A stretch of 45,674 bases of DNA, taken from sequence record SRR31156797_5180; one strand, written 5' to 3'. A model generated the notes under the pieces. That model was not told the origin of the DNA. It made no database searches and saw only the letters and a program-made list of their open reading frames with translations. Positions within the stretch are counted from its first letter, which is position 1; every line of letters begins with the position of its first letter. Both the position numbers and the translations under genes were made by a program. This document shows, in pieces, positions 11,481 through 41,591 of the stretch.

Positions 11481-11724
11481 TTTTAATTAACAGTGAGGAT
11501 CTTTTTGTATAACCTATTATCACAGTTTTAATATGATTATTGTATAAGCTTTGACACGCAATGAATTCATTTGGTCTGAATTATTTTATGAAAAAAAATA
11601 GGGGGTGAACGGAATTATTAAAATCCTTCGGTTCCACTCCTCAATAAAATTTCTTTCCGTGTTAGCTCCAGTCCTTTCTGTCGGCTCCCAAAAATTTCCT
11701 ACTTTCGAAGACAAAATGGTTACA

Positions 11725-14618: not shown

Positions 14619-14625
14619 TTGGATC

Positions 14626-15042: not shown

Positions 15043-15068
15043 CCAAAATATGAAAGGTATTTAATTGT

Positions 15069-15719: not shown

Positions 15720-15720
15720 A

Positions 15721-17339: not shown

Positions 17340-18413
17340 TCACTCCCAAAACCCAAACGCCCCGGGAATAATTCCAACCCGCAAAGTATCCATAGGAATT
17401 CCATTTGGATGATAACGATAAACCAGTCCCCGTTGTACGTGGTCGATGGCATCAGCGATGTAGATTTCGGAGGTCGCCGGATCGATACCCAGGCCATAGA
17501 ATCCGCCAATAGTTCCGGAGTATGGGCTTTCGATCAATAGCTCAGGTTCAGTGGTTGAAGCTACAGCATACCTGAAAAGATGGCGGTTCAGGAAAAAGAG
17601 GGTGTCGCCACTGTGGTTGATGGCTAGTTCGGTGGGATTTTCTTCAGGTGAGAAAAGGAATGTCGTTTCAATTTGTAATGTAGCAGCATCAATCCTGGTA
17701 ATACCGGGAGTTTCGGTGCCGGTCTGTCCACCATCACTGAGCACCCAGAGTTTGTTGTATTTGTCCAGAACCAGCGAGTTCGGCTGGGCCATCACCCGGA
17801 TAGAATCCACTAGCCGGTCTGTATCGCTATCGATTACCAGCACATGTTCACCATAACTCCAGTGGGTTGTGAATACAAACTGCCCGAATTGCACAAACTG
17901 CTCCGAGGAATAGGCAATTTTATTTGCGGAATCGGTGAGTGGAATATAGCCGGTGATTTCAAAAGTTTGGGGGTTTACTATTGTGATGGCTCCACTGTAA
18001 ATATCGCTGATGTAAGCTTTGGTGTCGCTTAAAAAGTGCATGTAGCGTGGGGAGGTCAGTCCGGTGATTTTTCCGGCGAGGGAAAAGTCGTTGAGGTTTA
18101 TGGCATAAACTTTTCCGCTGTTGTTCATCACCACCCAGGCCAAGTTTCCGTTTATGGCTGCTGATTGTGCCACATCACCGAGAGGCAATCCATTGGCATG
18201 GTAGAAAACATCATTCTCCACTGTTTTGGTTTCAGGATCATAAAATGAGAGGGAGGCGTTCTGGTAGGTGAAGTTTCCTTCGCAAACCACAAACATGCCG
18301 CTGGTGGTAATGGGTCGGGTGTTGGATTCAAAATCCCACAGCTCATCATCCTTCATGCAGGACGAAAGCGCAATTAATAAAATCAGCCATATGTAGAATT
18401 GTGGTTTTCTCAT
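17340..18413 (-). CDS. btuG: BtuG-like surface lipoprotein (beta-propeller, B12 capture)
   Basis: Lipobox LSSC followed by MKDDE (export-signal-like); EGNFTYQNASLSFYDP...LGDVAQS...TSPRYMHFLSDTKAY resembles Bacteroides BtuG; directly downstream of btuB. Confidence 0.85.
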   Translation of the reverse strand: MRKPQFYIWLILLIALSSCMKDDELWDFESNTRPITTSGMFVVCEGNFTYQNASLSFYDPETKTVENDVFYHANGLPLGDVAQSAAINGNLAWVVMNNSGKVYAINLNDFSLAGKITGLTSPRYMHFLSDTKAYISDIYSGAITIVNPQTFEITGYIPLTDSANKIAYSSEQFVQFGQFVFTTHWSYGEHVLVIDSDTDRLVDSIRVMAQPNSLVLDKYNKLWVLSDGGQTGTETPGITRIDAATLQIETTFLFSPEENPTELAINHSGDTLFFLNRHLFRYAVASTTEPELLIESPYSGTIGGFYGLGIDPATSEIYIADAIDHVQRGLVYRYHPNGIPMDTLRVGIIPGAFGFWE

Positions 18414-23110: not shown

Positions 23111-23235
23111 GCTGCAAAAGATTTTTGCGTGTTAATAAATCAGTTTGTGATTTTGCAGCTGAAAATTGCAGGAGAGACATATTCTGTGAAATGTCAGCAT
23201 CCTGTTCACCGCAGACTGCAAAACCGTTTTTCAGT

Positions 23236-23416
23236 GGCAGGTTTTCTGACTTACTCCCCTTTTCAACGCCTTCCCATTTGCCCACCGGCAAAAAGTGGCC
23301 CTTTGTTAAAAAGCATTGGAGCTTACAGCAGCGGGAACTGTTGCCGAATTGCACGACATTCCCTTTTAATCCTCATCTACCGGGTGTGTGGTTGGTAAAT
23401 TTACGGACACCAATGA
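23236..23416 (-). ncRNA. Cobalamin riboswitch
   Basis: Minus strand reads GGT...TAAAAGGGAA-tgtc-GTGCAATTC...CAGTTCCCGCTGCTGTAA...GCCACT...GGGAAGG...AAGTCAGAAAACCTGCC (B12 box), upstream of a btuB operon. Confidence 0.95.
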
Positions 23417-23421
23417 TCTGG

Positions 23422-23429
23422 CAAAGATA
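23422..23429 (-). promoter_or_regulatory. Bacteroidota -7 box of the B12 operon
   Basis: TATCTTTG immediately 5' of the riboswitch. Confidence 0.7.
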
Positions 23430-23819: not shown

Positions 23820-26800
23820 ATGAAAAACAGATACGTTCTTTTCCTGATTATGGTATCTTTTATGCCCCTTTTGCTAAATGCTGAGTGGCTGCCGGTAAAT
23901 CAAAACAGTAAAACTGCATCAGCTCCCAATGTAACCCTGATCAGTGATAACGCCTCCTCAACGGTTATAAAGGTTGAAGTGCCCGGGCTTGTGATGAAGG
24001 AATTAGTCACAGATGGTAAAACTTTTCAGAAATTTGACCTGTTAACTGATATTTGGACCATAGAACCTGGTTCTCCTGAAGTACCTCATATAGCAGAAAT
24101 TCTGGCCATTCCTGATAATTCGGGATTTACGGTAGAGGTAATTGAGATAGGTGATACGCATACTTTCAGCAATATTGATATACCTCCGGCACGCCCAACC
24201 TGGTGGGAAGGTGATGCCGAACCTGCTTATACAGAAGATACCAAAGCATACAGCAAGGATGCTTTTTATCCTGAGGCGATGGCACGAATGGATGATCCAA
24301 CCATTTTCAGGGATTTCCGTATTTCAAGGCTTTCGGTTTATCCTGTTCAGTATAACCCTGTTCGCCGGGAACTGAAAATAGCGACATCAGTTACAATAAG
24401 GGTAAATTATGGAAAAGGTGAAGTTATCAACCCGAAAACATCACCAAAGCGACCGATTGCGCCTTCATTTGCGGAACTCTACCGCAGCTCCATATTTAAC
24501 TACGATGAAGTGCTAAACCGCGTCTATGGCGGCAGGGAAGATGGTGAAGAACTGATGCTTTGTATCATGCCGGATGAGTTTGAGGAGAGTTTCGAACCCT
24601 ACGCTGAGTGGAATCGCAGAACCGGGACAAACATTCATGTGACTACTTTCAGCGATATTGGTGCCAATGCATACAATCCTGATATTATTAAAGAGCACTG
24701 TACAGATGCATATTATAACTGGGCAACCTGCCCGACCTATGTTTTGGTGATTGGCGATGATGGCGTTTTTCCCGCTAAAACCATTACATATCCTGATTAC
24801 TCTTTTGCCTACGACAACTATTTTGTAAATATTGCTGGAAATGATGAGGTGCCTGAGATGATGATTGGCCGTTTTACCAACCAGGGTGATTACCGGATGC
24901 GGGTTATGATCAATAAATATCAGCTTTACGAAGAGCATCCCTATGTTGAGGAAACAGATTGGTTTACCAGCGGAATTTGTTGTTCAAACAATGATTATGA
25001 ATCTCAGGTTGAAACCAAGCGTTTTGCATATGACTGCATGACAGAAGATGGTGGATTCACCCATGTTGATACCCTGATGAGCGATGGCTGGGGCTGGAAC
25101 TGTTCCATGGATGTTGATGATGTGGTTAATGCAATCGAAGATGGTAGAAGCTACCTGAACTATCGGGGCGAGGGCTGGTATTACGGTTGGTACGCCAACT
25201 GTTATGATTTTTATGAAGAACACGTTTCTGATTTGCAAAATGGCCAGAAATTCACTTTCGTGACAAGTATCGGCTGTGGTGTTGCCATGTGGGAAGCAAG
25301 TGGTGGAAACTGTTTTGGAGAACAATGGATACAGGTTGGAAGTATTTCGGAGCCCCGCGGAGGTATTGGTTTCATTGGACCTACTTCAAACACACACACA
25401 ACGTATAATAACAGGATTGATAAAGGTATTTACGTAGGTATGTTCCGAGAAGGGATGGATACTCCCGGACAAGCGATGACACGTGGTAAATTGTACATGT
25501 ATAATGTATTTGGAAATGAGTTCTGGGTATGGTATCATTACAATGTTTTCCATGTATTGGGCGATCCAAGCCTTCACATCTGGAAAGAAGTGCCACGTGA
25601 GGTCACCGTTGAGCATGTAGATATAATTCCGGTGGGATTTAATGATCTGGAGTTTCAGGTGAATTTTGCAGATAATGGCAACCCGGCCGATAGTGTAGAG
25701 GTTTGCCTGTATGGCGCTGATGTATTTGCAACTGCAATTTGTGATTCACTTGGAAAAGCAACAGTAACCATTGCTACTGCAGTTGAGGATACAATCAGTG
25801 TTGTTGTTAGAGGTGGTGATGTTTACCCATACCAGTCATACATGGTTGTTATTCAGCCCGACGAACTGGTTGAACCGGAGGGAGAACCTGAAATGATTGA
25901 CCTGGATGGAAATCAGGATGGCCTCATAAACCCCAATGAACATGCAGAAATTGCCTTCACACTCAAAAATTGGGGTAACCTGCCTGTAAATAATGTTCAG
26001 GCAACTTTGTCTTCATCAAATCCTGATGTTGAAGTGATTACAACTACACCAATAAGTTTTGGAAGTATTTTGCCTGGTGAAATGGCAACCGGAGACCCAT
26101 TCGAATTTTATGTGGCGGAATCCTGCCCTGTTGGTGATATGATCACATTGAACCTGCATGTAACAACCACAATCAGTAATTGGGACTATGACTATGATGT
26201 TGAGGTGATGGGTTGTGATTTGAGTTATGAAATGTATATGGTTGGCGATGAGATTTCAACCAATCCAAATTACAGGATGGATCCGGGTGAAAATGTGCGG
26301 TTATTTATGTCCATTATGAACCCCGGTCAGGATGTTGCCCCAAATGTTGGCGGAACGCTTTCAAGTTCAGACCCATATATTACCATAGTTGATGAGTCTG
26401 CAACTTTTGGCACTCTGGAAATAGAGGGTATGGCCATTAATGAAAATGATTATTTTGAAGTGAATGTTTCACCGGCTTGCCCCACGGGATACATGGCCGA
26501 CTTCGAACTGGAACTTTTTACACAGGATGGTAATTATCCTTTCGAAAAGATAATCGCTATTCAATTGCCTGTTGCACTTCCTGTGCCAACTGACTATACC
26601 GGCCCGGATGAATATGGCTATTATGCTTACGCCAGCACTGATGCCTTCTTTGATCAAACCCCTGATTTCGACTGGATGGAAATTCATGAACTCGGGGATG
26701 CCCTAAATATGTATGGCGAAACCGACTATACCGAAACTGTTGATCTGCCATTTACTTTTAAATACTATGGCATGGATTACGATAAGCTGCGTATCAGTAC

Positions 26801-27581
26801 GGATGGCTGGATGGCTCTTGGCAATGGTGTTCAAACCGCACCTGAAAATTATGCCATTCCACACAATGACAATGTGAATAATATGGTAGCCGTGTTCTGG
26901 GATGACCTTTACGATATTCAGTTTGAGGATGGTCAGATTTTCTATTATCATGATGCGGTCAATAACCGGTTTATTGTAGAATGGGACAGCATTACTCATA
27001 ACAATGCAGGCCCGGAACCCATCCGTGAAGAATTCCAGGCCATTCTGCTTGATCCGGCACATTATCCGACAAATACCGGCGATGGTGAAATTGTCGTTCA
27101 ATATCGCGATGTTAAAGATGCTTCTTCAAATACCATCGGCATCGAAAATAGCACTCAGGATATCGGCCTACAATATGTGTTTGACGAAGAATATGACCAA
27201 ACTGCCGGCAATATCGGCGGAGGAGTTGCCATAAAATTTACTACCGAAGCACCATTTGTTTCCATCATTGTTTCGGTAGAACAAGGTGCTGGCCTTGTGA
27301 ATACATCAGACGGACTGCTACAGAATAATCCAAACCCGTTTAGCAGCCAGACAACAATTAAGTATTTCGTTTCTAAAACTTGTGATGTAACCCTGAATAT
27401 TTTCGATATAACCGGAAAGCTGGTAAAAACAATCGAGCAGGGTAACGTTACCTCCGGTAGCCACCAGGCCAACTGGAATGGAACCGATAACCAGGGCAAT
27501 ATGCTTGGCTCAGGAATTTATATTGTCAGGCTACAGACTTCCGAATTTACCGATTCCATGAAGATGTTCATGCTGAAGTAG
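23820..27581 (+). CDS. Large C25 (gingipain-like) family protein with propeptide, repeated Ig-like domains and FlgD-Ig/T9SS-type CTD
   Basis: Propeptide PGSPEVP, YPVQYNP; PTYVLVIGD, YDNYF, MMIGRF, YLNYRGEG, FVTSIGC, LGDPSL; two (N/D)P(N/G)E...TLSSSxP domains; QNNPNPF...WNGTDNQG..LGSGIYIVRL. Confidence 0.88.
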   Translation: MKNRYVLFLIMVSFMPLLLNAEWLPVNQNSKTASAPNVTLISDNASSTVIKVEVPGLVMKELVTDGKTFQKFDLLTDIWTIEPGSPEVPHIAEILAIPDNSGFTVEVIEIGDTHTFSNIDIPPARPTWWEGDAEPAYTEDTKAYSKDAFYPEAMARMDDPTIFRDFRISRLSVYPVQYNPVRRELKIATSVTIRVNYGKGEVINPKTSPKRPIAPSFAELYRSSIFNYDEVLNRVYGGREDGEELMLCIMPDEFEESFEPYAEWNRRTGTNIHVTTFSDIGANAYNPDIIKEHCTDAYYNWATCPTYVLVIGDDGVFPAKTITYPDYSFAYDNYFVNIAGNDEVPEMMIGRFTNQGDYRMRVMINKYQLYEEHPYVEETDWFTSGICCSNNDYESQVETKRFAYDCMTEDGGFTHVDTLMSDGWGWNCSMDVDDVVNAIEDGRSYLNYRGEGWYYGWYANCYDFYEEHVSDLQNGQKFTFVTSIGCGVAMWEASGGNCFGEQWIQVGSISEPRGGIGFIGPTSNTHTTYNNRIDKGIYVGMFREGMDTPGQAMTRGKLYMYNVFGNEFWVWYHYNVFHVLGDPSLHIWKEVPREVTVEHVDIIPVGFNDLEFQVNFADNGNPADSVEVCLYGADVFATAICDSLGKATVTIATAVEDTISVVVRGGDVYPYQSYMVVIQPDELVEPEGEPEMIDLDGNQDGLINPNEHAEIAFTLKNWGNLPVNNVQATLSSSNPDVEVITTTPISFGSILPGEMATGDPFEFYVAESCPVGDMITLNLHVTTTISNWDYDYDVEVMGCDLSYEMYMVGDEISTNPNYRMDPGENVRLFMSIMNPGQDVAPNVGGTLSSSDPYITIVDESATFGTLEIEGMAINENDYFEVNVSPACPTGYMADFELELFTQDGNYPFEKIIAIQLPVALPVPTDYTGPDEYGYYAYASTDAFFDQTPDFDWMEIHELGDALNMYGETDYTETVDLPFTFKYYGMDYDKLRISTDGWMALGNGVQTAPENYAIPHNDNVNNMVAVFWDDLYDIQFEDGQIFYYHDAVNNRFIVEWDSITHNNAGPEPIREEFQAILLDPAHYPTNTGDGEIVVQYRDVKDASSNTIGIENSTQDIGLQYVFDEEYDQTAGNIGGGVAIKFTTEAPFVSIIVSVEQGAGLVNTSDGLLQNNPNPFSSQTTIKYFVSKTCDVTLNIFDITGKLVKTIEQGNVTSGSHQANWNGTDNQGNMLGSGIYIVRLQTSEFTDSMKMFMLK

Positions 27582-27595
27582 GGATTGGTTAATAT

Positions 27596-28774
27596 ATGTA
27601 TACCTTTTACATATTATTGGTGATCATCATCCTGTCGTCAATTGCGGGATTGATTGAGTATGCCCGCCATCAAAAGCGAATATACTCAATACCCCTGCGT
27701 ATCCATGTCAATGGAACGCGGGGAAAATCAAGCGTTACACGGCTCATTGGAGCCGGATTGCGCGCAGGTGGTATCCCTAATGTTGTGAAGGTTACAGGGA
27801 CTTTTCCCCGCCTCATCCTTGAAGACGGCACCGAAACATATATCCATCGCAGGTCTTCAGCAAATATTATCGAACAGCTTTCTATTGTAAAATTTGCTGC
27901 CAGGCGGCAAGTAAAAGCCCTGGTGATGGAATGTATGGCTTTGCAACCGCAATATCAAACCATTACCGAAAAGCACATGATCCATTCAAACCTGAGTGTG
28001 ATCACCAATGTGCGGCTCGATCATACAGATGTGATGGGATATTCGCTTCCTGAAATCGCATACACACTGGGGCGGACAATCCCCAGGAAGCAACAGTTTT
28101 TCTCAGCCGAAAATATCATCGATGCTGAGCTACAGAAGATTTGTGATCGCCGGAAAACGGAATCGCATTTTGTAACAGGTGACACGGTTTCATCCGAAGA
28201 AATGAAGGGGTTCAGTTATATCGAACATCGCGACAATGTGGCGCTTGCCCTGGAAATATGTAATCATCTTGGGATAGATCGTAATACCGCACTGAAGGGC
28301 ATGTATAAAGCCATTCCGGATGAAGGTGCTTTGCGTGCTTTCAGGATCCGGGCATTTAGCAAAAGCATGACGTTTTACAATGCTTTCGCTGCCAACGACC
28401 CTGATTCAACCATCATGATCTGGAAAAAAATCAGGGATGAAGTTGGAATGCTTGGTGCTAAAATAATATTACTCAACACCAGGCAGGACCGCCTCGACCG
28501 TGCCCGGCAGTTGGCTGAGATGTGCGGCAAATACCTATCGGAAGAGGCTGATAACCTGTTGCTGATTGGGCAGTCTACAGAAGTAGTAGAACAAATGTCC
28601 ACAAGTAATGGATTCTCAAAATCAAAAATCATCAACCTGGGATATACAACGCCGGCAAAGGTTTTCGAAACAGCCTTGTCGCTTTCCAATAATCAGTCTA
28701 CCATTGTTGCCATTGGAAATATGGGAGGAATGGGAGCTGAAACTGCAGCATATTTTGAAAACAGAAGTGCATAA
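27596..28774 (+). CDS. pgsB: Poly-gamma-glutamate synthase PgsB/CapB
   Basis: N-terminal TM; RIHVNGTRGKSSVTRLI, KVTGT, NIIEQ, ECMALQP, TNVRLDHTDVMG, NAFAANDPDST, RQDRLDR, GNMGG. Confidence 0.93.
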   Translation: MYTFYILLVIIILSSIAGLIEYARHQKRIYSIPLRIHVNGTRGKSSVTRLIGAGLRAGGIPNVVKVTGTFPRLILEDGTETYIHRRSSANIIEQLSIVKFAARRQVKALVMECMALQPQYQTITEKHMIHSNLSVITNVRLDHTDVMGYSLPEIAYTLGRTIPRKQQFFSAENIIDAELQKICDRRKTESHFVTGDTVSSEEMKGFSYIEHRDNVALALEICNHLGIDRNTALKGMYKAIPDEGALRAFRIRAFSKSMTFYNAFAANDPDSTIMIWKKIRDEVGMLGAKIILLNTRQDRLDRARQLAEMCGKYLSEEADNLLLIGQSTEVVEQMSTSNGFSKSKIINLGYTTPAKVFETALSLSNNQSTIVAIGNMGGMGAETAAYFENRSA

Positions 28775-28780
28775 TATGAA

Positions 28781-29230
28781 ATGATTGAATTAGCCATTAC
28801 GCTTGGATTAATTTTTAGCTTGTTGTCGTACGAAGTATTCGGACTAGCCGCCGGGGGTATTGTTGTGCCTGGATACATTGCGCTTCAGCTATCTCACCCC
28901 GACAGGTTGATTGGAATTTTTGTGGTGAGTTTCATCACCTTCCTTATCATCAAGGTTTTGGGAAATTACACTTTTCTGTATGGCCGCCGTCAAATGGTGC
29001 TCGCACTATTAATTGGATGCCTGCTTGCCAATTTTTCCCGTTACTTTCTTTCACTCGATATATCGGGAAATACTTTGGAACTGCAGGCTGTTGGCTGGGT
29101 GATTCCGGGGTTAATCGCACACTGGTTTAGTAAGCAGGGTGTATTAAAAACGGTAAGCGTACTATTTGTTACTTCGGTGCTTGTGCGTTTTATTTTGATT
29201 TTGTTTTTTGCGGGTACATTGTTGCCCTAA
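28781..29230 (+). CDS. pgsC: Poly-gamma-glutamate biosynthesis membrane protein PgsC/CapC
   Basis: GLAAGGIVVPGYIAL, LYGRR, VGWVIPGLIA...KQG; 149 aa. Confidence 0.93.
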   Translation: MIELAITLGLIFSLLSYEVFGLAAGGIVVPGYIALQLSHPDRLIGIFVVSFITFLIIKVLGNYTFLYGRRQMVLALLIGCLLANFSRYFLSLDISGNTLELQAVGWVIPGLIAHWFSKQGVLKTVSVLFVTSVLVRFILILFFAGTLLP

Positions 29231-29249
29231 TTTGAAATGAAAACTGAGC

Positions 29250-30407
29250 ATGTATAAATTCAGTGCGAAATCGAATCTTGTATTAGGTGTTTTATCAGCT
29301 CTGGCGCTATTGGCCCTGCTGGCTGTGGAACATGGTACTGTTGATGTGAAGCAGGATTGGTATGAAGAAAAACTTTCTGCTGCCGAGCTTTCGATGGAAG
29401 CTATGGAAGCCATCAAGGAGCACAGGTTGGAAAAAGGTGTTTTTATAGATGCAGTAAATGATCCCAACCAAACAGCGATGATCGGGCAGGAGTACACACT
29501 CGTTACTACCGACCGTGGTTACATCGACGCCAAACTCTCATCTACCAATCCCAATTTTGCAGCTGTTATTGTTCAGATGTTAAAGGATGCCGGACTTCAG
29601 GAAGGCGACAATGTTGCAATAGCATTCACCGGGTCCTTTCCTGCATTAAATATTTCAGTTTATGCCGCCCTGGAAGCTTTGAATCTAAACCCAATAGCCA
29701 TCACATCAGTGGGAGCTTCAAATTTTGGTGCCAACGATCCCTATTTCTCCTGGCTCGATATGGAGCGATTTCTATATGAAAATAAGATATTTAAGTTTAG
29801 GTCGATTGCTGCATCAGTAGGAGGCGGGCATGATGTTGGTCGTGGTTTAAGTCCGCAGGGGCGCGATCTGATCAAGGAATCTATCCGGCGAAATGAGATG
29901 GAGTTTATCGATGAAAATCATCTTGAAAACAGCATTTCACGACGTATGGAATTATACCGGGAGGCTGCAGGTGACGAAGGAATAGGTGCATTTATCAATG
30001 TTGGAGGTGGAATTGCAAGCCTCGGAAATACCATCAACGGGAAGCTGATACCACCAGGAGTAACAGAATTTTTACCCATGCGAAATTTCCCGGTGAAAGG
30101 GGTAATAATCCAAATGGGTCAAAAAGGTGTGCCAATTATTCACCTGCTCAATATAAGCAGGTTACTTCAAGAATATGGTTTGCCCGGTAGCCCGGTGCCT
30201 TTGCCCGAACCCGGCGATGGGGGCATATTTTCCGAAGAAAAATACAATGTTGTTTTAGCCGGTGTGGCAACTTTTGTGCTGGTGCTTATCATTGTGCTGG
30301 TCTATCTGGGCGAGCGCAGATATCACCGCCTGGGAACTGATGTTGTGCCGGTAGCTCAAAAAATTAGATCACAGATTGACAACCCGGAGGAAGACATTAC
30401 GCTATAA
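29250..30407 (+). CDS. pgsW: Poly-gamma-glutamate system protein PgsW
   Basis: DPNQTAMIG.EY..VTTD.G...AK...TNPNFAA, TGSFPALNI, SVGASNFGAN, FINVGG, GVPIIHLLNI; N- and C-terminal TM helices; follows pgsBC. Confidence 0.88.
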   Translation: MYKFSAKSNLVLGVLSALALLALLAVEHGTVDVKQDWYEEKLSAAELSMEAMEAIKEHRLEKGVFIDAVNDPNQTAMIGQEYTLVTTDRGYIDAKLSSTNPNFAAVIVQMLKDAGLQEGDNVAIAFTGSFPALNISVYAALEALNLNPIAITSVGASNFGANDPYFSWLDMERFLYENKIFKFRSIAASVGGGHDVGRGLSPQGRDLIKESIRRNEMEFIDENHLENSISRRMELYREAAGDEGIGAFINVGGGIASLGNTINGKLIPPGVTEFLPMRNFPVKGVIIQMGQKGVPIIHLLNISRLLQEYGLPGSPVPLPEPGDGGIFSEEKYNVVLAGVATFVLVLIIVLVYLGERRYHRLGTDVVPVAQKIRSQIDNPEEDITL

Positions 30408-30433
30408 TTATGAATGCAAACAAAAAATGAACG

Positions 30434-31345
30434 ATGAAAAAATTTACAATTTTAATGCTCATTTTCCTGGTTACGGGCTCGGGAGTAATTGCTCAGAGCA
30501 GCAAAAAAGCAAGGCGTCTGAAGCCAAAGAATCATACAAAAAGGGTAACCCATATCCTTTCCGGAAAATCCAGGAGCTATTACGCTCTCGATACTGAAAA
30601 GATATCATTAATCACCGTTGAAGGCCCCGGTAAATTGCGCGTGATCACCAGGGCACGTTATGAAAACATGTGGCAGGATGAATATGATTACTCGGTGAAG
30701 TATATTGTTGACGGTGGAGAGCAGTTATCCGAAAAATTTTATGGTGTGGAACCACTTGAAAATGGAAAATACCGCAATGAGGATTTGGGTAAGCCCGGGC
30801 ATAGCAAAGATTTTAAGATTGACCTGAGCCGTGGAGATCATTCCATCGAATTTACACTTGCTGATAAGCATGTTAAAGTAGCTGCCAGGTATTTATTTTA
30901 CCCGGCCAAAGCCAAAAAAATCGACTGGATTTCTTTTTCACCGGAACTGCCAGCCGAACCTGTGGATCTGGTATCACGCGAATCGATCATCCATTATTTC
31001 AGGTCATCGCAGGACCAACCTATAAAAGTTGAAGTCATTGGGCCGACCCAGGTTCGCATACTTACCAGGGTTGAAAATCATTACCAAATGCGCGGCCGGA
31101 TCAACTACCGTATGCAGGTAAAGGAAAATGGGAAAGTGATCAATACCTATCAACTGAGTAGCCTGAGGTCGCAGGTTACATTTTATAAAGATGATCCTGC
31201 ACTGGTTCCGGGCAAGGGTTGCGAATTTGTGATCAATGTTCCTGATGGTAAGCATACCTACGAGATTATGCCAATCGATAAGGATAAAAGTACAGTCCTG
31301 GCCAGGTTTATGATCCCCAAAAAAGATGTAAAGAATAAAGAATAG
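30434..31345 (+). CDS. Basic secreted hypothetical protein with two tandem beta-rich domains
   Basis: Signal peptide; repeats ITVEGPGKLRVITR...GDHSIEF and VEVIGPTQVRILTR...GKHTYEI; Lys/Arg-rich. Confidence 0.8.
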   Translation: MKKFTILMLIFLVTGSGVIAQSSKKARRLKPKNHTKRVTHILSGKSRSYYALDTEKISLITVEGPGKLRVITRARYENMWQDEYDYSVKYIVDGGEQLSEKFYGVEPLENGKYRNEDLGKPGHSKDFKIDLSRGDHSIEFTLADKHVKVAARYLFYPAKAKKIDWISFSPELPAEPVDLVSRESIIHYFRSSQDQPIKVEVIGPTQVRILTRVENHYQMRGRINYRMQVKENGKVINTYQLSSLRSQVTFYKDDPALVPGKGCEFVINVPDGKHTYEIMPIDKDKSTVLARFMIPKKDVKNKE

Positions 31346-31378
31346 CGTTTAAGCTTACTGTTTCTAAATAATTTGCCT

Positions 31379-32521
31379 ATGAGAATCAATCCTGTCAAAT
31401 ATAATTTAAAAAATCATCTGAATATCTTAATCATGGTCTTTCTGGCTTTTGGGGTATTCATGCCTGCTTCAGCTCAGAAAAAATCGAAAAAAGAAAAGCC
31501 GGAGTATGATGTTGATATCTCACTGCTAACTTTTTATGATGATAACATCCTGAAATACTCCGACAAGTATCTGGATCGATTTTTACACAACGAAGACCAG
31601 GGGCGTTTTCATATTGAAACATACGACGATATTATTTTTAATCCACAGGCAACAGTGAGCGGAACATTCCGGATTTTTGGCAAGCAGAAATCAGTTTTCG
31701 ATGTCAATGCCAGCTACAGTAAATATGTGGTGAACAATGTAAAAACGTGGAGCAATTTTGGGATTGGCTATCGTCAGTACATCAACAAAAAATTGAATTT
31801 CAAGTTGTTTTATGATTACATTCCTGAGTTTTATGTGCGCCATTTCAGGGATGATGACTGGACGGCCGTTTATGGCTTTTCTGACGACACCACATTCACA
31901 CCTTATATCTTTTCGAAGAACAATTACGGAGCCTGGGTGCAGTATTCATTGTTTAAGAATACCCGGTTCAGGCTTTACTACTACTATTCGCAGTATTATC
32001 ATAACAAACATTACACGGAGTATGACAGCAAAAATTCGTTGTACCGTTTTAAGCTGTGGCAGAATTTTTTAGATGATTTTACCTTCGAGTTTACCTACCA
32101 GTATGTTTATTCTGATGCAAAAGGTTATGATGAACCCGGCGAAGACAAGAAAACATCAGACGACGGTGATGCTACGTACGAAGAGGACGGCTTTATTTTT
32201 GGGTTGATGTACAGGTTGCCCCGAATTAAAAAGCGGTACCATACACTTGAGGTTGAAACTGTAATTTATAACAGATACTACAAAACCGAAAAACCGGTGA
32301 TCGTAGACCGCCTGCATGCCGGACGTGTTGACAATAACCTGCGGATTTATGTTACATACTACCTGAGTGCCAGTAAAAATTGGAAGTTCAAGGCATTCTA
32401 CCGTTGGCTGGGGCGCGATTCGGGAACAACCTCAATCTTAAACGAAGAATTTGTTTCTGACGAAAAAGACTATAAGCAAAACCAGGTAGGCCTGGAAGTG
32501 ATATATAGATTTGGTTTTTGA
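31379..32521 (+). CDS. Probable outer-membrane beta-barrel protein
   Basis: Signal peptide ending ASA-Q; N-terminal strand FYDDNI; Tyr-rich alternating strands; C-terminal VIYRFGF. Confidence 0.75.
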   Translation: MRINPVKYNLKNHLNILIMVFLAFGVFMPASAQKKSKKEKPEYDVDISLLTFYDDNILKYSDKYLDRFLHNEDQGRFHIETYDDIIFNPQATVSGTFRIFGKQKSVFDVNASYSKYVVNNVKTWSNFGIGYRQYINKKLNFKLFYDYIPEFYVRHFRDDDWTAVYGFSDDTTFTPYIFSKNNYGAWVQYSLFKNTRFRLYYYYSQYYHNKHYTEYDSKNSLYRFKLWQNFLDDFTFEFTYQYVYSDAKGYDEPGEDKKTSDDGDATYEEDGFIFGLMYRLPRIKKRYHTLEVETVIYNRYYKTEKPVIVDRLHAGRVDNNLRIYVTYYLSASKNWKFKAFYRWLGRDSGTTSILNEEFVSDEKDYKQNQVGLEVIYRFGF

Positions 32522-32539
32522 TATTTAAAAAATTGAGAT

Positions 32540-33583
32540 ATGTATATTGAAAAATTATTCAGATTATTTGTATTGATGACCGCCTTTTCATTATTGGTGG
32601 CCGGTTGTGGAAAACCAACCGATCCTGAAGATATTGAGCCTGATCCTGATGCTGGATCAGGTGGGTATAAAATTGAAGCCATTTTCCAAACCACGGGGTT
32701 TGCACAGGATGTGGTCATAAAGGGCGATCTGCTTTACGTGGCCCAGGGAGAAGCCGGGCTGTTGATCCTGGATGTTTCGAACCCACTGGATCCTCAAATC
32801 GTTTCTACGACAACTGAAGGCGTACGTGGATATTCATCCAAAGTTATTGTTGAAGAAAACGTGGCTTACCTGGCTGCCGGCACCTATGGTATTACACTCA
32901 TCGATGTGGAAGATCCTTATCAAACAAATGTAACAGGTTGGTATCTTGAAGTAGTTCAACCGTCCCGAAATTTGTTTATCATGGATAAATACCTGTTTAC
33001 TGCAATTAGCGAAAAAGGCGTTCAGATCGTGTTTGTAGAAAAACCAAATCAGCCACTCCCTGATGTCAGGGCTAATGTTCACACAACAGGTTATGCATAT
33101 TCAGTCGGGATCACTCCTGATACAACAAAAATGATGGTTGCTTGTGGTGAGTTGGGATTGTCCATTTTCGATATCTCCGATTTTCAGAATGGTTATGCGG
33201 ATTATCCGCTAATTTCAGAAACAGACACGCCAGGCTATGCCGAAGATGTGGTGATATCACCAACCGAATCACTGGCCTACATGGCTTGCGGAATTGAGGG
33301 GCTCCAGATTATTGATTATTCCGATACAACGAATATTCATATCGTGGGTAGCCTGGATGAAGGTGGTTATGCCAAAGAACTCAAATACGATGATAATAAA
33401 ATATTTATGGCTGTTGAGTTGGGTGGGCTCCAGGTAATCGATGTTGCAGATCCATCAGCTCCAAAATTGCTGGGTGAGGTTGATACCGAGTTTTCACTGG
33501 GAGTGGATTTTGATGATGATTTCATCTACATTGCTGATGAAGATCAGGGTGTTATTGTGATCTCCCGCCCGGATGAGAAGTAG
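32540..33583 (+). CDS. LVIVD-repeat beta-propeller lipoprotein
   Basis: Lipobox LVAGC; repeated YVA.G..GLLILDVSNP, GITLIDVEDP, GLQIIDYSD, GLQVIDVADP. Confidence 0.88.
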   Translation: MYIEKLFRLFVLMTAFSLLVAGCGKPTDPEDIEPDPDAGSGGYKIEAIFQTTGFAQDVVIKGDLLYVAQGEAGLLILDVSNPLDPQIVSTTTEGVRGYSSKVIVEENVAYLAAGTYGITLIDVEDPYQTNVTGWYLEVVQPSRNLFIMDKYLFTAISEKGVQIVFVEKPNQPLPDVRANVHTTGYAYSVGITPDTTKMMVACGELGLSIFDISDFQNGYADYPLISETDTPGYAEDVVISPTESLAYMACGIEGLQIIDYSDTTNIHIVGSLDEGGYAKELKYDDNKIFMAVELGGLQVIDVADPSAPKLLGEVDTEFSLGVDFDDDFIYIADEDQGVIVISRPDEK

Positions 33584-33699: not shown

Positions 33700-33902
33700 A
33701 ATAACACCGACCGCAGTGAGACCAATGGCACGAAGTAAATGACACTGAACGCAGTGAAGCCAATTACGCACGAAGTGCCAATTAGGCTGAGCGTAGCAAG
33801 GCCAATGACACGATGTAAATAGCGCTGAATGCAGTGAAGCCAATTACGCACGCAGTGCAAAATTACACCGAACCCGGCGAGGTAAAATACGCACGTAGCG
33901 CA
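33700..33902. repeat. REP/BIME-like array of alternating 24-bp and 14/18-bp units, 80-bp higher-order period
   Basis: A units start at 33700, 33738, 33780, 33818, 33861; B units at 33724, 33762, 33804, 33842, 33885; gcagtgaagccaattacgcacg occurs at 33751 and 33831. Confidence 0.85.
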
Positions 33903-33916
33903 AATGATAAGATTTT

Positions 33917-35029
33917 ATGAACCAAAAACCATCAGCCAAAAAACGTTTTGATTTTATCGACCGCTTCCGTGGTTTCATCGGTGTGTTGATGCTTTTGGGA
34001 CATAGTTCCTATTATTTCAATTCCATCTGGTTGCAGCTCGATCCGCTGGATCCGCTTTTTCCGTCATGGGGGCAGTTCATGTTGCGATATGTAGGGTACC
34101 TCTGCGCACCCGGGTTCCTGATGATGAATGGCGCCATGGTGTGGTGGTCGTTCAACAGAAGGATAGAAAAAGGGGGCAGGGCAGGAGAGGCACGCTGGCA
34201 TCTTATTCAACGCGGTCTTTTTCTGGTACTTGTCCAGGTTACATGGGTCAACTCATCATGGGGAGGCTTTGCCGAATTCAAACCGCTGCATCTGGGTATA
34301 ATATCTACAATTGGCATTTCAATGGTATTGCTCACCTTTATCATTCACTTTCACTGGCTTGCTCGAACTATTATTGCTGTTATAATATTGATCGCACATG
34401 CGATTCTTTTACAGGTTTCTTACAACCCCGAAATTATCTGGCAACAGGTGTTGATGCAGACTTTTATCGATTCCGGAAGTTTTAATAAGTACCCGGTTTT
34501 ACCCTGGTTTGCGCTCGGAATATTGGGTTCGGTGATGGCCAACGGCTGGCTGAAAATCTGGAAATCGGATAAGCAAAGGATCCTGTATGGCCTGATTATT
34601 TCGCTATCGGTTTTTGCACTGGCTGTCGTAGTTCGTATGGGACGCGATTTTGGAAATATTTTTCCCTACTCTGATTTTGGACATTACTCGTTTTTCATCG
34701 ATCAGAAATATCCGCCAAGCTTTTTTATGAACCTGTGGTCATTTGCGGCCGTCGTATTAGGTGTAACCCTATTTATTTTACTTGACCGGGTATTTCCGAA
34801 ATTGCTATCGGTTTTTAGTATTCCCGGCAAAGTACCGCTATTTTTCTATGCTGTACATCTTGCTATACTTGGCATTTTTGTAAAACGGATGGATATGTTT
34901 TATCGCGAGGGCGGGGTGGTGGTATCCCTCCTGGGCTTGCTGGTGATGTTACTGATTATGCTACCGTTCTGCCGTTGGTTTTACGGCATAAAGCGCAGAA
35001 GTAGCAATTATTTTATCCAAATGATATGA
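33917..35029 (+). CDS. DUF1624 / HGSNAT-like multi-pass membrane protein (putative acyltransferase)
   Basis: IDRFRGFIGVLMLLGH, CAPGF, RGLFL, YPVLPW, KYPPS, GKVPLFFYAVH; about 9-10 TM segments. Confidence 0.82.
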   Translation: MNQKPSAKKRFDFIDRFRGFIGVLMLLGHSSYYFNSIWLQLDPLDPLFPSWGQFMLRYVGYLCAPGFLMMNGAMVWWSFNRRIEKGGRAGEARWHLIQRGLFLVLVQVTWVNSSWGGFAEFKPLHLGIISTIGISMVLLTFIIHFHWLARTIIAVIILIAHAILLQVSYNPEIIWQQVLMQTFIDSGSFNKYPVLPWFALGILGSVMANGWLKIWKSDKQRILYGLIISLSVFALAVVVRMGRDFGNIFPYSDFGHYSFFIDQKYPPSFFMNLWSFAAVVLGVTLFILLDRVFPKLLSVFSIPGKVPLFFYAVHLAILGIFVKRMDMFYREGGVVVSLLGLLVMLLIMLPFCRWFYGIKRRSSNYFIQMI

Positions 35030-35892
35030 GCAGGGCCATTGAAAATATCATCTCAGGAATTGGCATTGGTTTATTGTTTTTAATGATGACCGGATGCGGC
35101 AGCCGTCATGGTGAATCTTTCAGGAGCAATGATGGAACAACGATTTTTAATCTGAATTCAAATCCCGGATTCAGGCCCGAAATTTCATTTTGTTGGGATT
35201 TTGATGAAAATACCGGTACTCCGGTTTGGCCGGATTCGGTATTTACAATTGACGATAAGGAGTGGCTGAATGCCATCATTCGACTTAACAATTTGCAGAA
35301 CGCTCCTGAGGTGGCTGTGTTTCATGTGGATTGGGTAGCCCCGGATGGTAACTCGATGTTCATCAAAGAAATTGATGTAGATTCAGCTGGTTATATCCAA
35401 AGCTCCATTTCAATTTCGCCTGAGCGGCGTAAACCCGGAAAATACACTTTAAAGTTGTATTATTTCAGGGAGTTGATTGCCATTAAAACTTTCGTCCTGC
35501 TACCGGAAAACTCGGTTAACTACAGCCTGGCTTCACGGATTCTTCCCCATTTATCATTTTGTTCAGAAACCACTAAAACAGGCGAATGTATTGATGCGGA
35601 TTCGGTTTTTACCATTCGAAAAAAAGGATGGGTAAAAGCTGTGGTGAAAATCCGTGGAGTGAGCGCTTTAACCAAAGGTCGCACTCGCTACCAACTGGAG
35701 TGGCATGGGTGGGATGGCCAGGTATTTTATACCAAAAACATTGATGTGGAACCCGAAGACCCCATGCAGCTCATTTTCAGTTCCATTTCCATCCCACCCG
35801 GCAAACGCGAGCCGGGCCAGTACGGGTTGAAAGTGTACTGTTTTGATGAACTTGTCTGCAGGGGCAGTTTTACACTTGTACAATCTGAATGA
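35026..35892 (+). CDS. Hypothetical lipoprotein with an internal tandem duplication
   Basis: Lipobox MTGC; two copies of SFC...TG....DSVFTI...W...DG..F.K.IDV...SSISI.P..R.PG.Y.LK.Y.F.EL. Confidence 0.8.
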   Translation: MSRAIENIISGIGIGLLFLMMTGCGSRHGESFRSNDGTTIFNLNSNPGFRPEISFCWDFDENTGTPVWPDSVFTIDDKEWLNAIIRLNNLQNAPEVAVFHVDWVAPDGNSMFIKEIDVDSAGYIQSSISISPERRKPGKYTLKLYYFRELIAIKTFVLLPENSVNYSLASRILPHLSFCSETTKTGECIDADSVFTIRKKGWVKAVVKIRGVSALTKGRTRYQLEWHGWDGQVFYTKNIDVEPEDPMQLIFSSISIPPGKREPGQYGLKVYCFDELVCRGSFTLVQSE

Positions 35893-36279
35893 TTAAAGGG
35901 AATGGTTTACCCAATCAAAGGCCTGGGTCATGTCTCTCAGGTGAAAATACCTTTCCTCCCGTCCTGCTGTCTTACTCCCAAAAAACAGGTTGTCTGCTTT
36001 CGTTAAAAATTCCTCCACTTTGCTTTCGCCTACGATGGCTATTTTTCCGCAGTATTTCAGGTGCTTCATGGCATACACGCCGTCTTTCAGCATGGCTTTC
36101 AGGCTGCTTTTCATCAGGTTCAGGTTATCAATTTTCACCAGCATATTCACTTTATCGATTCCCCGGTCAAGTTTTTCTTCAAAAAGCTTTTCCAGGCTTT
36201 TTTCATCGTCATGGGTGTAACCGTTAATGATTTCGATGCCAATGACGTGTTTGGCTGTACTGTCGAGTTGTTTTATCAT
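35893..36279 (-). CDS. SpoIIAA-like (STAS/SEC14) domain protein
   Basis: VIGIEIINGYTHDD, KIAIVG, ERYF......AFDWV. Confidence 0.8.
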   Translation of the reverse strand: MIKQLDSTAKHVIGIEIINGYTHDDEKSLEKLFEEKLDRGIDKVNMLVKIDNLNLMKSSLKAMLKDGVYAMKHLKYCGKIAIVGESKVEEFLTKADNLFFGSKTAGREERYFHLRDMTQAFDWVNHSL

Positions 36280-36407
36280 AATGCAAATTATTTTGATTGT
36301 CGATGCCGAAATATAATCAATCCCAGCCGAAATTCAAAAAAAAATCCTGCTGCGCAAATTTTTTCGTGAGTAATGAATCGACATACCTCATTCAATCACA
36401 GAATCAT

Positions 36408-36415
36408 TACCTTTG
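36408..36415 (+). promoter_or_regulatory. Bacteroidota -7 box
   Basis: TACCTTTG; implies the CotH start is 36448 or 36457 rather than 36373. Confidence 0.5.
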
Positions 36416-36447
36416 AAGCTTCCAAATATTTCTATAGCTGCGAACCT

Positions 36448-38370
36448 ATGCAATTCATGAAGCAACTGCAAATCATATTTTTAAGAAAGGGCCTGATAAT
36501 AATTTTGTTTTTCCTTTTGTTGATTGGCTCTTTTACTGTTTCAGGTCAGGTATTAGAGACAAATCTCCCCATTGTGATCATCAACACCAGTGGCCAGGAG
36601 ATCCCCGATGAACCAAAAATTGATGCTGATATGGGCATTATCGACAACGGCCCGGGAGCAATAAATCATCAGAACGATCCCTTTAACGATTATGATGGGT
36701 TTATCGGAATTGAGGTGCGCGGACAATCATCACAATTTTTCTATCCCAAAAAATCCTACAGTTTCGAAACCCGTGACGCGCAAGGTGAAAACCTGAATGT
36801 GCCTATCCTCGGTATGCCCGAGGAAAACGACTGGATTTTGTATGCGCCTTACGGAGATAAATCCATGCTGCGTAATATGATTTCGTTCTGGATTGCCAGG
36901 CATTTGGATGTTTATGCTTCCCGGACTGTGTTTTGCGAAGTAATTCTTAACGGCGAATATATGGGGGTGTATGTGATGATGGAGAAAATTAAAAAGGACG
37001 AGGAACGTGTAAACATTGCAAAACTCACTCCTGACGACAACTACGGAGATGAACTTACCGGAGGCTATATCATTCGTGTGGATAAAACTGATGATTTCCA
37101 GTGGGGAACAGATGGCTGGCAGTCTTTTCCAAACCCGCCATTCCCGAATGCCATGAACATCATTTATCAGTATTACTACCCCAAATCTGATGAAATAACC
37201 AGCTTTCAGAAAGATTACATCCAGGAATATATTGGCGATACAGAAGATGCCCTGATTGCTGAAGATTTTAATGATCCTGATGTTGGTTACAACCTGTATT
37301 TAAATACAGGTTCGTTTGTTGATTTCATGCTTGTGAGCGAGGTATCAAAAGAGGTGGATAAATACCGATACAGCACCTATTTTTATAAAGAAAAGGATAG
37401 TGACGGTGGGAAGCTGTTTGCCGGACCGGCATGGGATTTTAACCTGGGATACGCGAATGTGGATTATTGGCAGATGGGTGTTGATATTCCTGGATGGGTT
37501 TACGATGAAGTTGAACCCGTAGAATGGAGCATCATGTTTTGGTGGAAGCGCCTGATGCAGGATTACTACTTTAGAAACCTGGCAAAAACACGCTGGCAAC
37601 AACTGCGCGAAGATGAGTTAAGCAACGAGCGTTTTCAGTTTGTGATAGATTCGATCGTTACCTACATTGACGAGGCGCAGCAACGCAATTATGAGAAATG
37701 GCCAATCCTGGGTGAATACGTGTGGCCCAACTACGATTGGCAAAATAATACCTATGAAGATGAGGTTGAGTTTTTCGAAAACTGGCTTTTTGAGCGGTTG
37801 GACTGGATGGACTATAACTTGCCCGGAGTGGTACTCGAGCCCTCCGCCGACCTGTCGCTGATCTTCAACAATGATGTGATAGAACTTAAATTGAACAATG
37901 ATTACTTCAGCCGCACGATTCTGAAAAACAAGTATTTTGAGGCGAACGATCCACCGCCGGATTTCGAGATCGATACGGTGGTTTATGTGGATGCATCAAC
38001 AGCATATATTTATTTTGATAATCCGGCCAAAAAGCAGTTTTCCCTCTCCTTAACCATCGATAAAAAGGTGATCAACACCTTTGATGATTTAACTACTTCA
38101 TCAGTAGTTCTGGATCTGGAAGAAAATGATGATCTGAATGAAGAAATCAAAGTTTTCGCAACCCAATCCGGCTTAATGATCAAATGCATAAACCCGGAAA
38201 AGCTTGGTGAGGAATGTTTGATTTTTGATCTGCAGGGCAGGATAGTTGAGCAGCATCGAATGCAGCCAGTAACCGAAAACCTGATCCGGGTTAATCAGCC
38301 TGCCGGGATTTATATCTGTCACATTCATTTTGATGGTACCGCTATTGGCAGGAAGTTACGAGTTTGGTAA
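36448..38370 (+). CDS. CotH kinase family protein with T9SS CTD
   Basis: IEVRGQSS, PKKSYSFE, DWILYAPYGDKSMLRN, YMGVYVMMEKIK, AGPAWDFNLGY, ERLDWMD; tail IFDLQGR...PAGIYI...RKLRVW. Confidence 0.9.
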   Translation: MQFMKQLQIIFLRKGLIIILFFLLLIGSFTVSGQVLETNLPIVIINTSGQEIPDEPKIDADMGIIDNGPGAINHQNDPFNDYDGFIGIEVRGQSSQFFYPKKSYSFETRDAQGENLNVPILGMPEENDWILYAPYGDKSMLRNMISFWIARHLDVYASRTVFCEVILNGEYMGVYVMMEKIKKDEERVNIAKLTPDDNYGDELTGGYIIRVDKTDDFQWGTDGWQSFPNPPFPNAMNIIYQYYYPKSDEITSFQKDYIQEYIGDTEDALIAEDFNDPDVGYNLYLNTGSFVDFMLVSEVSKEVDKYRYSTYFYKEKDSDGGKLFAGPAWDFNLGYANVDYWQMGVDIPGWVYDEVEPVEWSIMFWWKRLMQDYYFRNLAKTRWQQLREDELSNERFQFVIDSIVTYIDEAQQRNYEKWPILGEYVWPNYDWQNNTYEDEVEFFENWLFERLDWMDYNLPGVVLEPSADLSLIFNNDVIELKLNNDYFSRTILKNKYFEANDPPPDFEIDTVVYVDASTAYIYFDNPAKKQFSLSLTIDKKVINTFDDLTTSSVVLDLEENDDLNEEIKVFATQSGLMIKCINPEKLGEECLIFDLQGRIVEQHRMQPVTENLIRVNQPAGIYICHIHFDGTAIGRKLRVW

Positions 38371-41255: not shown

Positions 41256-41591
41256 ATGAACCTGAAGGAAATTAAAAATGATAAGGCTGTGATCATCGAG
41301 ATTGATGGCCGGTTGGATACAACCAATTTTAGCATGTTGGAGCACGAAGTCAACAAACATATCGATAATGGGAAGACCAAATATGTGATTGATTGCAGCA
41401 GTATGGATTACGTGAGTAGTTCAGGACTGCGTGTATTCCTTATGGCGCTGAAAAAGGTTAAAGCACTCGATGGAAAGTTTCTGCTGTGTGGCCTGCAGGA
41501 GAATATCCTGGAAATATTTGAGATTTCAGGGTTTACTACGATTTTTAATATTTACAAAAACCAGGAAGAAGCCGTTGAAGCCCTGGATTAA
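41256..41591 (+). CDS. STAS-domain anti-sigma-factor antagonist (RsbV/SpoIIAA)
   Basis: GRLD, MDYVSSSGLRVFL (phospho-Ser motif), IFEISGF. Confidence 0.92.
   Translation: MNLKEIKNDKAVIIEIDGRLDTTNFSMLEHEVNKHIDNGKTKYVIDCSSMDYVSSSGLRVFLMALKKVKALDGKFLLCGLQENILEIFEISGFTTIFNIYKNQEEAVEALD

Follow-up and report, generated by a model that had tools for sequence, protein, structure and literature searches.

The 45,674-nucleotide stretch of DNA SRR31156797_5180 (hereafter, the window) carries at positions 23820-33583 of the plus strand a block of seven co-oriented genes that includes the poly-gamma-glutamate (gamma-PGA) genes pgsB, pgsC and pgsW. This block is a tightly conserved operon. It represents a variant gamma-PGA system with a well-supported candidate outer-membrane module, for which we infer, from gene layout, predicted folds and linkage, a role in export and anchoring of the polymer. 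With moderate confidence, we read the operon as a system that carries a gamma-glutamyl polymer, made by PgsBC, across the envelope of a diderm that possesses a type IX secretion system (T9SS), either an uncultured member of the Bacteroidales or a Lentimicrobiaceae-like bacterium. More tentatively, the block could encode a complete two-membrane polyamide machine consisting of a CapA-independent PgsBCW synthase, an adaptor resembling carbohydrate-binding modules (CBMs), a 14-strand channel and, as surface partners, a propeller lipoprotein and a T9SS-delivered gingipain-fold protein without the catalytic histidine. Poly-gamma-glutamate occurs in capsules and biofilms and has industrial uses, and its synthesis is understood almost only in Bacillus. 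The locus names specific candidate genes for the missing diderm steps, namely the adaptor, the channel and the surface partners.

Calling of open reading frames (ORFs) across the window confirmed the seven co-oriented genes, separated by 6-33 nt, that had been described in the original prediction from sequence. The first gene encodes a C25-like (gingipain-fold) protein of 1253 amino acids (23820..27581) with a signal peptide, a C25 propeptide, a C25 domain and a T9SS C-terminal sorting domain. It is followed by pgsB, encoding the poly-gamma-glutamate synthase amide ligase with its N-terminal membrane anchor (27596..28774), pgsC, encoding a small polytopic membrane subunit (28781..29230), and pgsW, encoding a poly-gamma-glutamate system protein (29250..30407). 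The remaining genes encode a basic secreted protein of 303 amino acids (30434..31345; the 30434 protein), an outer-membrane beta-barrel of 380 amino acids (31379..32521; the 31379 barrel) and an LVIVD-repeat lipoprotein of the beta-propeller type (32540..33583). A TTG at 31373 is also open for the barrel gene; however, its 380 word-index homologues are typically 380 amino acids long, which favors the ATG at 31379. The six intergenic gaps measure 14, 6, 19, 26, 27 and 18 nt, the fifth becoming 33 nt when counted from this ATG. Signal peptides are present on the C25-like protein, the 30434 protein and the barrel, while the LVIVD protein carries a lipobox.

To define the conserved unit, we examined loci recovered with two different seeds. 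A pgsW seed yielded 16 loci in species genomes, labelled Bacteroidales, Lentimicrobiaceae or Bacteroidetes, plus one Chlorobiota. At all 16, every one of the seven genes for which DNA was present was found and in identical order; 12 loci hold the complete set and four end at contig edges. The second seed, the barrel, was used in a metagenome scan with an 18-sequence alignment (a diverse 45-sequence alignment was too variable), and 122 relatives were confirmed; the analysis covered the 80 best. Counting only loci with enough flanking DNA among these 80, the 30434 gene was present in 58/59, pgsW in 42/43, pgsC in 37/38, pgsB in 33/33, the LVIVD gene in 46/46 and the C25-like gene in 23/23. Wherever a related locus has the DNA, pgsBCW retains these neighbors, a condition on which the original prediction depended. 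The extent originally assigned to the block, 23820-33583, captures seven linked genes but is usually too short, since the conserved unit tends to include the next two genes, up to position 35892. These encode a polytopic membrane protein of the HGSNAT_cat (DUF1624) type (33917..35029) and a second lipoprotein with an internal duplication (35026..35892; the 35026 lipoprotein), and they come next in 11 of the 13 pgsW-seeded loci with downstream DNA. Both are frequent accessories of the block in metagenomes as well, where the HGSNAT-like gene was found in 28/36 loci and the second lipoprotein gene in 24/30.

The gene set is more constant than its arrangement. At one locus (L036) the C25 gene has moved to the 3' end of the block, and at three others (L128-L130) the barrel and LVIVD genes stand ahead of pgsB, with the set kept in each case. 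The genes flanking the block in the window are not conserved: those upstream occur in 1/10 loci and the downstream CotH gene in 0/25. One could propose that the neighbors have simply been kept by shared ancestry within a single clade, with no functional tie to pgsBCW. Every locus is indeed either from a related genome of the Bacteroidales type or on a metagenome contig without a label, and PgsW identity is 42-84% in the loci that carry the barrel module (type A). Nevertheless, we regard this explanation as extremely unlikely. The context beyond the block is not conserved, the set has survived changes of gene order, the barrel was never found away from pgsW in the genomes described below, and fusions of two of the products occur elsewhere. 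Permuted order, differing flanks and fusions together suggest that the block is a functional unit and not the product of shared ancestry alone.

The phyletic pattern was assessed in 401 Bacteroidota genomes sampled evenly around a relative, so that the counts refer to what was found in those genomes. The pgsW model TIGR04332 was matched in 12 of them. The barrel profile was matched in five, all of which bear pgsW, and each of these five genomes contains a single barrel match located about 1.1-1.3 kb beyond pgsW. No barrel was seen away from pgsW among the 401. In contrast, the other seven pgsW genomes contain a more distant pgsBCW (PgsW 27-35% identical by blastp) with other neighbors. These loci (L040-L046) form a second cluster type that lacks the barrel, the sandwich-fold 30434 protein, the LVIVD lipoprotein and the C25 gene. 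A 660-amino-acid gamma-glutamyltranspeptidase (GGT) is encoded adjacent to pgsBCW in L042, L044 and L046, while DUF6305 and an AstE/AspA-like (zinc carboxypeptidase-type) protein are found in L040, L041 and L042; L043 resembles L042, judged by ORF sizes only. The pgsBCW core is thus accompanied by one of at least two different groups of accessory genes, the barrel module and the GGT/DUF6305/AstE-AspA-like set, and the latter offers a comparison system. An intermediate arrangement exists at L039 (G092, 9058-15437), where pgsBCW is followed by a distant sandwich protein (29% identity) and a barrel (hidden Markov model (HMM) E value 1.8e-16). At this locus a 1448-amino-acid Sortilin/Flg_new T9SS protein replaces LVIVD and C25, and a histidine kinase is encoded upstream.

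The 31379 product had been predicted to be a beta-barrel, and its structural model bears this out. An AlphaFold2 model built from a 44-sequence alignment (mean predicted local distance difference test score (pLDDT) 89) consists of a signal peptide followed by 14 strands. In a structural search against representatives, the best fold match was CymA (Z 24.5, root-mean-square deviation (rmsd) 3.4, 290 residues aligned), followed by OmpG (Z 21.2, rmsd 3.1, 244 aligned). FadL-type barrels scored about Z 17 and the polysaccharide exporters PgaA, BcsC and PelB scored Z 14.8, 13.7 and 12.7, respectively; the Foldseek result is in agreement. By sequence, no Pfam or NCBIfam family, DUF560 included, was matched at E<=0.01. 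The turns on the expected periplasmic side are 2-4 residues long, and the longest and most conserved stretches are in the loops between strands 1-2, 7-8, 9-10 and 11-12. Motifs conserved in the loops include Y-D-D-N-I-L, F-T-E-Y-D and D-P-L-H-A-G-R. By analogy with the usual barrel topology, we infer that these conserved loops lie outside the cell or are folded into the lumen. The isoelectric point (pI) of the barrel is 8.6.

The 30434 protein is more basic, with a pI of 9.6, and has a signal peptide and 284 homologues. Similar to the barrel, it belongs to no Pfam or NCBIfam family. Its AlphaFold2 model (pLDDT 88) comprises a signal peptide and two beta-sandwich (jelly-roll) domains. Foldseek matched these to tandem CBM51/CBM22 and to PNGase F, while VIA-align returned modules of the CBM35/36/6 type with Z of 8-9.5 and rmsd of about 3 Å over 104-115 residues. 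The modelled protein may therefore be described as a CBM-like jelly roll at the level of fold only, with no sequence family, and polymer binding is its candidate role, possibly as a periplasmic adaptor.

The strongest evidence that the 30434 protein and the barrel act as one device comes from proteins in which the two are fused. While a word-index search for longer fused forms of the 30434 protein found none, a search from the barrel side did. An HMMER pass with the barrel profile over 1.84 billion representatives without taxonomic labels gave 652 proteins at E<=0.001, and we examined the best 150. Among these 150, 16 proteins are at least 560 amino acids long and 30 are of 400-559 amino acids, with the barrel at the C-terminus. 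The 30434 profile matched 22 of these proteins, in each case on the N-terminal side of the barrel, and these fusions make up 11 of the 16 long proteins and 11 of the 30 middle-sized ones. Comparison of the fused N-terminal part with the 30434 protein by hhalign gave a probability of 99.7 over 259 columns for P0284 and 99.4 over 274 columns for P0279. Another family member, P0320, has no 30434-like part and instead carries tetratricopeptide repeats (TPRs) ahead of the barrel, with a weak match to TPR_Slam that falls below the cut-off. Because the N-terminus of such a barrel is normally periplasmic, the fusions would place the sandwich module on the periplasmic side.

These results bear on two other functions that could be proposed for the barrel. 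The first is that the module works inward, with glutamate or gamma-glutamyl oligomers entering through the barrel, and with turnover or recycling of the polymer as the task of the C25-like and LVIVD proteins. The CBM-like protein could capture substrate for such a channel, the block does include a peptidase-family protein, and the nearest folds, CymA, OmpG and FadL, are uptake channels. However, the C25-like protein lacks the catalytic histidine (see below), the conserved block contains no hydrolase, inner-membrane importer or catabolic gene, and the module is tied to synthase genes rather than degradative ones. We therefore assign import only a very small probability.

The second possibility is that the barrel translocates proteins, in the manner of Slam or otherwise, and brings the LVIVD lipoprotein or the sandwich protein to the surface while the polymer crosses elsewhere. 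Slam proteins combine TPRs with a 14-strand barrel, and P0320 has N-terminal TPRs. Additionally, the 14-strand barrel is always followed by the lipoprotein (46/46 loci), and the invariant C-G-K-P-x-x-P-E stretch at the lipidated N-terminus of the LVIVD protein could serve as a recognition signal. Against this, the barrel matches no Pfam family at E<=0.01, including DUF560, the TPR-plus-barrel arrangement of P0320 is equally the architecture of PgaA and BcsC, and it is the sandwich module, not the lipoprotein, that is repeatedly found fused to the barrel. The DUF560 result refers to sequence, as the fold libraries searched are not known to contain a solved Slam chain. Thus, a translocon appears improbable to us.

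The identities of the synthase genes, which had been assigned from sequence, were confirmed by HMM, as all three products exceed curated equivalog or subfamily cut-offs. PgsB scored 405.4 bits against the equivalog model TIGR04012 (cut-off 222.7) and 26 bits against PF08245 (Mur_ligase_M; cut-off 24), and its residues 1-25 form a hydrophobic segment. PgsC, which has four hydrophobic segments, scored 120.9 bits against TIGR04011 (cut-off 96.45) and 115.6 bits against PF14102. PgsW, encoded 19 nt downstream of pgsC, scored 329.1 bits against TIGR04332 (cut-off 100). Two hydrophobic segments of PgsW, at residues 4-33 and 330-357, flank a domain of ~300 amino acids that is predicted to lie in the periplasm. 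By hhalign, PgsW is not related to PGA_cap (probability 0.6%, with a PGA_cap profile of 4 sequences), and a sequence and profile search against solved structures gave no match to PgsW at E<=1.

According to the original prediction, the window contains no capA/pgsA, capD or capE, and the export module stands in place of CapA and CapD. The first statement holds for two of the three genes. Within the 45.7 kb of the window, none of the 38 ORFs matched PF09587 (PGA_cap, CapA/PgsA) or PF01019 (CapD/GGT), and when the PGA_cap protein of a relative served as tblastn query against the window, nothing matched but the T9SS tail encoded by the C25 gene; these scans were aimed at CapA/PgsA and CapD/GGT, and the 47-residue CapE/PgsE was not searched for. 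The second statement is only partly right in view of related genomes, which encode PGA_cap proteins outside the cluster in 3/3 cases searched and GGT outside the cluster in 3/5. Two of the PGA_cap proteins encoded outside the cluster also contain PKD and are 1134-1136 amino acids long (L132:1594-5004 and L133:1358-4762), with no T9SS tail by Pfam at E<=0.01. Additionally, a PGA_cap+PKD protein of 1011 amino acids is encoded within the cluster, beside the C25 gene, at L037:2627-5662 and L036:16145-19153. The L037 protein has a T9SS tail by Pfam, while the L036 copy was matched by tblastn only. A surface-exposed CapA-like domain in such proteins was unexpected.

The C25-like protein has the domain content of a gingipain. 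It matched Propeptide_C25 (PF08126, 96 bits) and Peptidase_C25 (PF01364, 172 bits), and it carries a tail typical of T9SS type A cargo (Por_Secre_tail, PF18962, 28.5 bits, cut-off 27; TIGR04183, 35.1 bits, cut-off 23). In an alignment with RgpB (phmmer E value 1.6e-18), the catalytic cysteine is kept as C486; however, the catalytic histidine (His211, in G-H-G) is replaced by glutamate (Glu451, in G-E-G). Of 15 orthologues, 14 have Glu here and one has Gln, while Cys486 and the nearby His526 are invariant. The true PorU of two relatives keeps both histidine and cysteine. The C25-like protein itself reached 78.1 bits with the PorU model NF033707 (cut-off 420), mainly through its C-terminal tail. 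All five relatives encode PorU-model matches of 919-1320 bits outside the cluster, indicating that they are T9SS-positive and that the C25-like gene of the cluster is a separate paralogue. Because the catalytic histidine has been lost, we do not class the C25-like protein as an active C25 peptidase or as an analogue of CapD, and the active site gives no support to a CapD-like transpeptidase role. Instead, the protein may bind or hold the polymer, or use other chemistry. The conserved His-less gingipain-fold protein is thus a candidate for a peptidase fold reused for polymer handling.

The second putative surface partner, the LVIVD lipoprotein, matched PF08309 with 92.7 bits (cut-off 20.2) and has its lipobox cysteine at residue 23. 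In an alignment of 34 orthologues, C23, P26 and P29 are invariant. Of the two frequent accessories, the HGSNAT-like protein scored 47 bits with PF07786 and is a possible transmembrane acyltransferase. At L036, a 25%-identical HGSNAT-like homologue is encoded upstream of pgsB. The 35026 lipoprotein has a lipobox and visibly repeated halves, with a weak MG2/Ig-like match (PF01835, 19 bits) below the cut-off, and the start of its gene overlaps the stop of the HGSNAT-like gene by 4 nt.

The frequency of the HGSNAT-type acyltransferase-like protein, which is encoded in 28/36 metagenome and 11/13 genome loci, is compatible with a different use of the synthase, in which PgsB and PgsC add gamma-glutamyl chains to an acceptor such as a glycan, lipid or protein and the module handles the resulting conjugate. 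The replacement of PgsA by the unrelated PgsW fits this idea, and T9SS cargo is normally attached to a surface glycolipid. On the other hand, the HMM scores of PgsB and PgsC mark both as equivalogs of their Bacillus counterparts, and no acceptor-specific enzyme, for example a glycosyltransferase, is conserved in the block. We consider chain addition to an acceptor to be of low probability.

Under our preferred reading, export of a gamma-PGA chain across both membranes, PgsB (an ATP-dependent amide ligase), PgsC and the bitopic PgsW would polymerize glutamate at the inner membrane and release the chain on the periplasmic side, with PgsW substituting for the unrelated PgsA/CapA. The basic, CBM-like 30434 protein would then bind the polyanion at the periplasmic N-terminus of the barrel, the position at which it is fused in other lineages, and the chain would exit through the 14-strand 31379 barrel. 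Once outside, the polymer might be held, trimmed or organized by the LVIVD lipoprotein together with the His-less gingipain-fold protein that the T9SS delivers, while the HGSNAT-like membrane protein and the second lipoprotein would be optional accessories. The original prediction had suggested that the block may be a full Gram-negative polyglutamate capsule or surface polyglutamylation pathway, with a candidate export and anchoring module. The genes, the barrel fold, the linkage, the phyletic pattern and the fusions speak in its favor, which supports it in part, with export and anchoring as such being proposed roles.

The route just described has the polymer leave the cell. It is also conceivable that the polymer stays in the envelope, free in the periplasm or bound to peptidoglycan or to the inner face of the outer membrane, where it could act for example as an osmotic or cation buffer, and that the module anchors or organizes it there. 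PgsW and the 30434 protein are both predicted to be periplasmic, and lipoproteins face the periplasm by default. Additionally, the 14-strand barrel is smaller than the 16-18-strand barrels of PgaA and BcsC, which score below CymA and OmpG as fold matches. However, a dedicated family of open barrels that is found only beside pgsW is hard to see as a mere anchor, and the T9SS surface protein in 23/23 loci, together with the PGA_cap protein in two loci, points to an extracellular stage. We therefore view retention in the envelope as unlikely, although it deserves some weight.

Several observations count against export through the barrel and should be weighed with the evidence above. The folds most similar to the barrel are those of uptake channels (CymA, OmpG, FadL), and a fold does not give the direction of transport. 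The charge of the lumen was estimated crudely, by counting strand phase without coordinates, as 19 K/R and 14 D/E. The C25-like protein lacks its catalytic histidine, making an enzymatic role doubtful, and both it (pI 4.2) and the LVIVD lipoprotein (pI 4.1) are strongly acidic, which is awkward for binding of a polyanion without metal ions. Seven of the 12 Bacteroidota genomes with pgsW have no barrel, indicating that the barrel module is not required by pgsBCW in general. The loci examined belong to one broad lineage or are unlabelled metagenome contigs, and a search for sequencing runs containing the stretch returned one DNA run and zero RNA runs. Separately from these points, a complex prediction for the barrel and the sandwich protein with the LVIVD lipoprotein as partner, run without alignments or control folds, gave no answer (score 0.00).

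Outside the block, the window contains a number of other recognizable features. On the minus strand at 23219-23429 is a cobalamin riboswitch (RF00174, 94 bits) that heads a divergent minus-strand operon encoding two T9SS-tail proteins, a BtuB-like TonB-dependent receptor (18415-20412) and a DUF5074 protein (17340-18413). The 5' limit of the pgs block is given by this riboswitch, with ~390 nt remaining for the block promoter. A sigma-70 promoter and terminator scan, which counted 52 promoter-like sites where 39 were expected, was uninformative; promoters in Bacteroidota differ in type. Between the LVIVD and HGSNAT-like genes, the 333-nt spacer contains a tandem array of a 38-nt unit (33700-33844; 3.7 copies, 67% matches) that reaches the gathering score of no Rfam family. 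Downstream, the 112-amino-acid ORF at 35889-36227 (pI 10.5) is of odd composition, matches no family and has a homologue in 0/25 loci, and it is probably not a real gene. The CotH kinase-like protein (PF08757, 184 bits), which carries a T9SS sorting domain, is encoded at 36373-38370, and a STAS protein is encoded at 41256-41591. Far upstream, the region 12690-16488 encodes a Cache/HAMP SpoIIE-type phosphatase, an anti-sigma-type HATPase_c_2 kinase, a cyclase-domain protein and DUF5995. Also upstream are a single 831-amino-acid ORF in which MurF-like Mur-ligase domains are combined with a full alanine racemase (6329-8824) and a peptidase C10 (streptopain-family) protein with an N-terminal Spi inhibitor-like domain (2365-3822).

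The operon can be set against what is described for gamma-PGA elsewhere. The relevant passages of PMC5542703 report capBC-type loci in most phyla, diderms included, and the model of PGA synthesis presented in them comprises CapA-E with no outer-membrane part listed. A passage of a 2026 review calls export of the gamma-PGA chain "incompletely understood" (PMC13721041), and Fusobacterium nucleatum is given, in the corresponding passage of PMC3815933 citing Candela 2009, as the (first) Gram-negative gamma-PGA producer. Within its coverage, our full-text literature search found no account of what PgsW does or of a gamma-PGA module in the outer membrane; papers beyond that coverage could hold one. 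The genetic evidence presented here, namely linkage, phyletic pattern and fusions, exceeds plain adjacency. If the proposed export is true, the locus would be the first link between synthase-dependent polymer export and T9SS surface display.

Among known systems, the monoderm Bacillus PgsBCA(E)/CapBCADE systems share with the operon the B-C gene order, the membrane anchors and the equivalog models TIGR04012 and TIGR04011, both of which are passed here. In contrast to the Bacillus systems, the third gene is pgsW, whose product is unrelated to PGA_cap by profile comparison, and the window lacks both PgsA/CapA and CapD. It also adds four to six envelope genes, and the host has an outer membrane and a T9SS. 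Closer to the operon is the pgsB-pgsC-pgsW cassette defined in NCBIfam (TIGR04012/TIGR04011/TIGR04332), as all three models are matched by adjacent genes. By itself, however, that cassette is silent on the outer membrane, to which the window adds the barrel module. Gingipains and PorU, the C25 proteins of the T9SS, resemble the C25-like protein in propeptide and domain, in the catalytic cysteine, in its alignment to RgpB and in the T9SS tail; the C25-like protein differs from them in having Glu or Gln at the catalytic histidine and in missing the PorU cut-off.

For the barrel, the closest folds are the 14-strand monomeric channels CymA and OmpG. Sequence identity to these is 12-13%, and they are sugar uptake channels that have neither a polymer-synthase operon nor a fused or adjacent CBM-like adaptor. 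The logic of the operon is instead that of AlgE/AlgK, PgaA, BcsC and PelB, in which an inner-membrane synthase is paired with an operon-encoded outer-membrane barrel that has a periplasmic polymer-binding part at its N-terminus. The parallel with synthase-dependent exopolymer systems drawn in the original prediction therefore stands as to the operon-encoded barrel with an N-terminal periplasmic part, but does not extend to sequence families, since the 31379 barrel belongs to none of those of AlgE, PgaA, BcsC or PelB by Pfam or NCBIfam at E<=0.01. Porins of the PgaA/BcsC/PelB type have 16-18 strands, whereas the 31379 barrel has 14 and is nearer to CymA and OmpG. Its periplasmic partner consists of two CBM-like sandwiches where PgaA and BcsC have TPRs. 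Lastly, while the cargo of the exopolysaccharide porins is a polysaccharide, the cargo proposed for the 31379 barrel is a polyamide.

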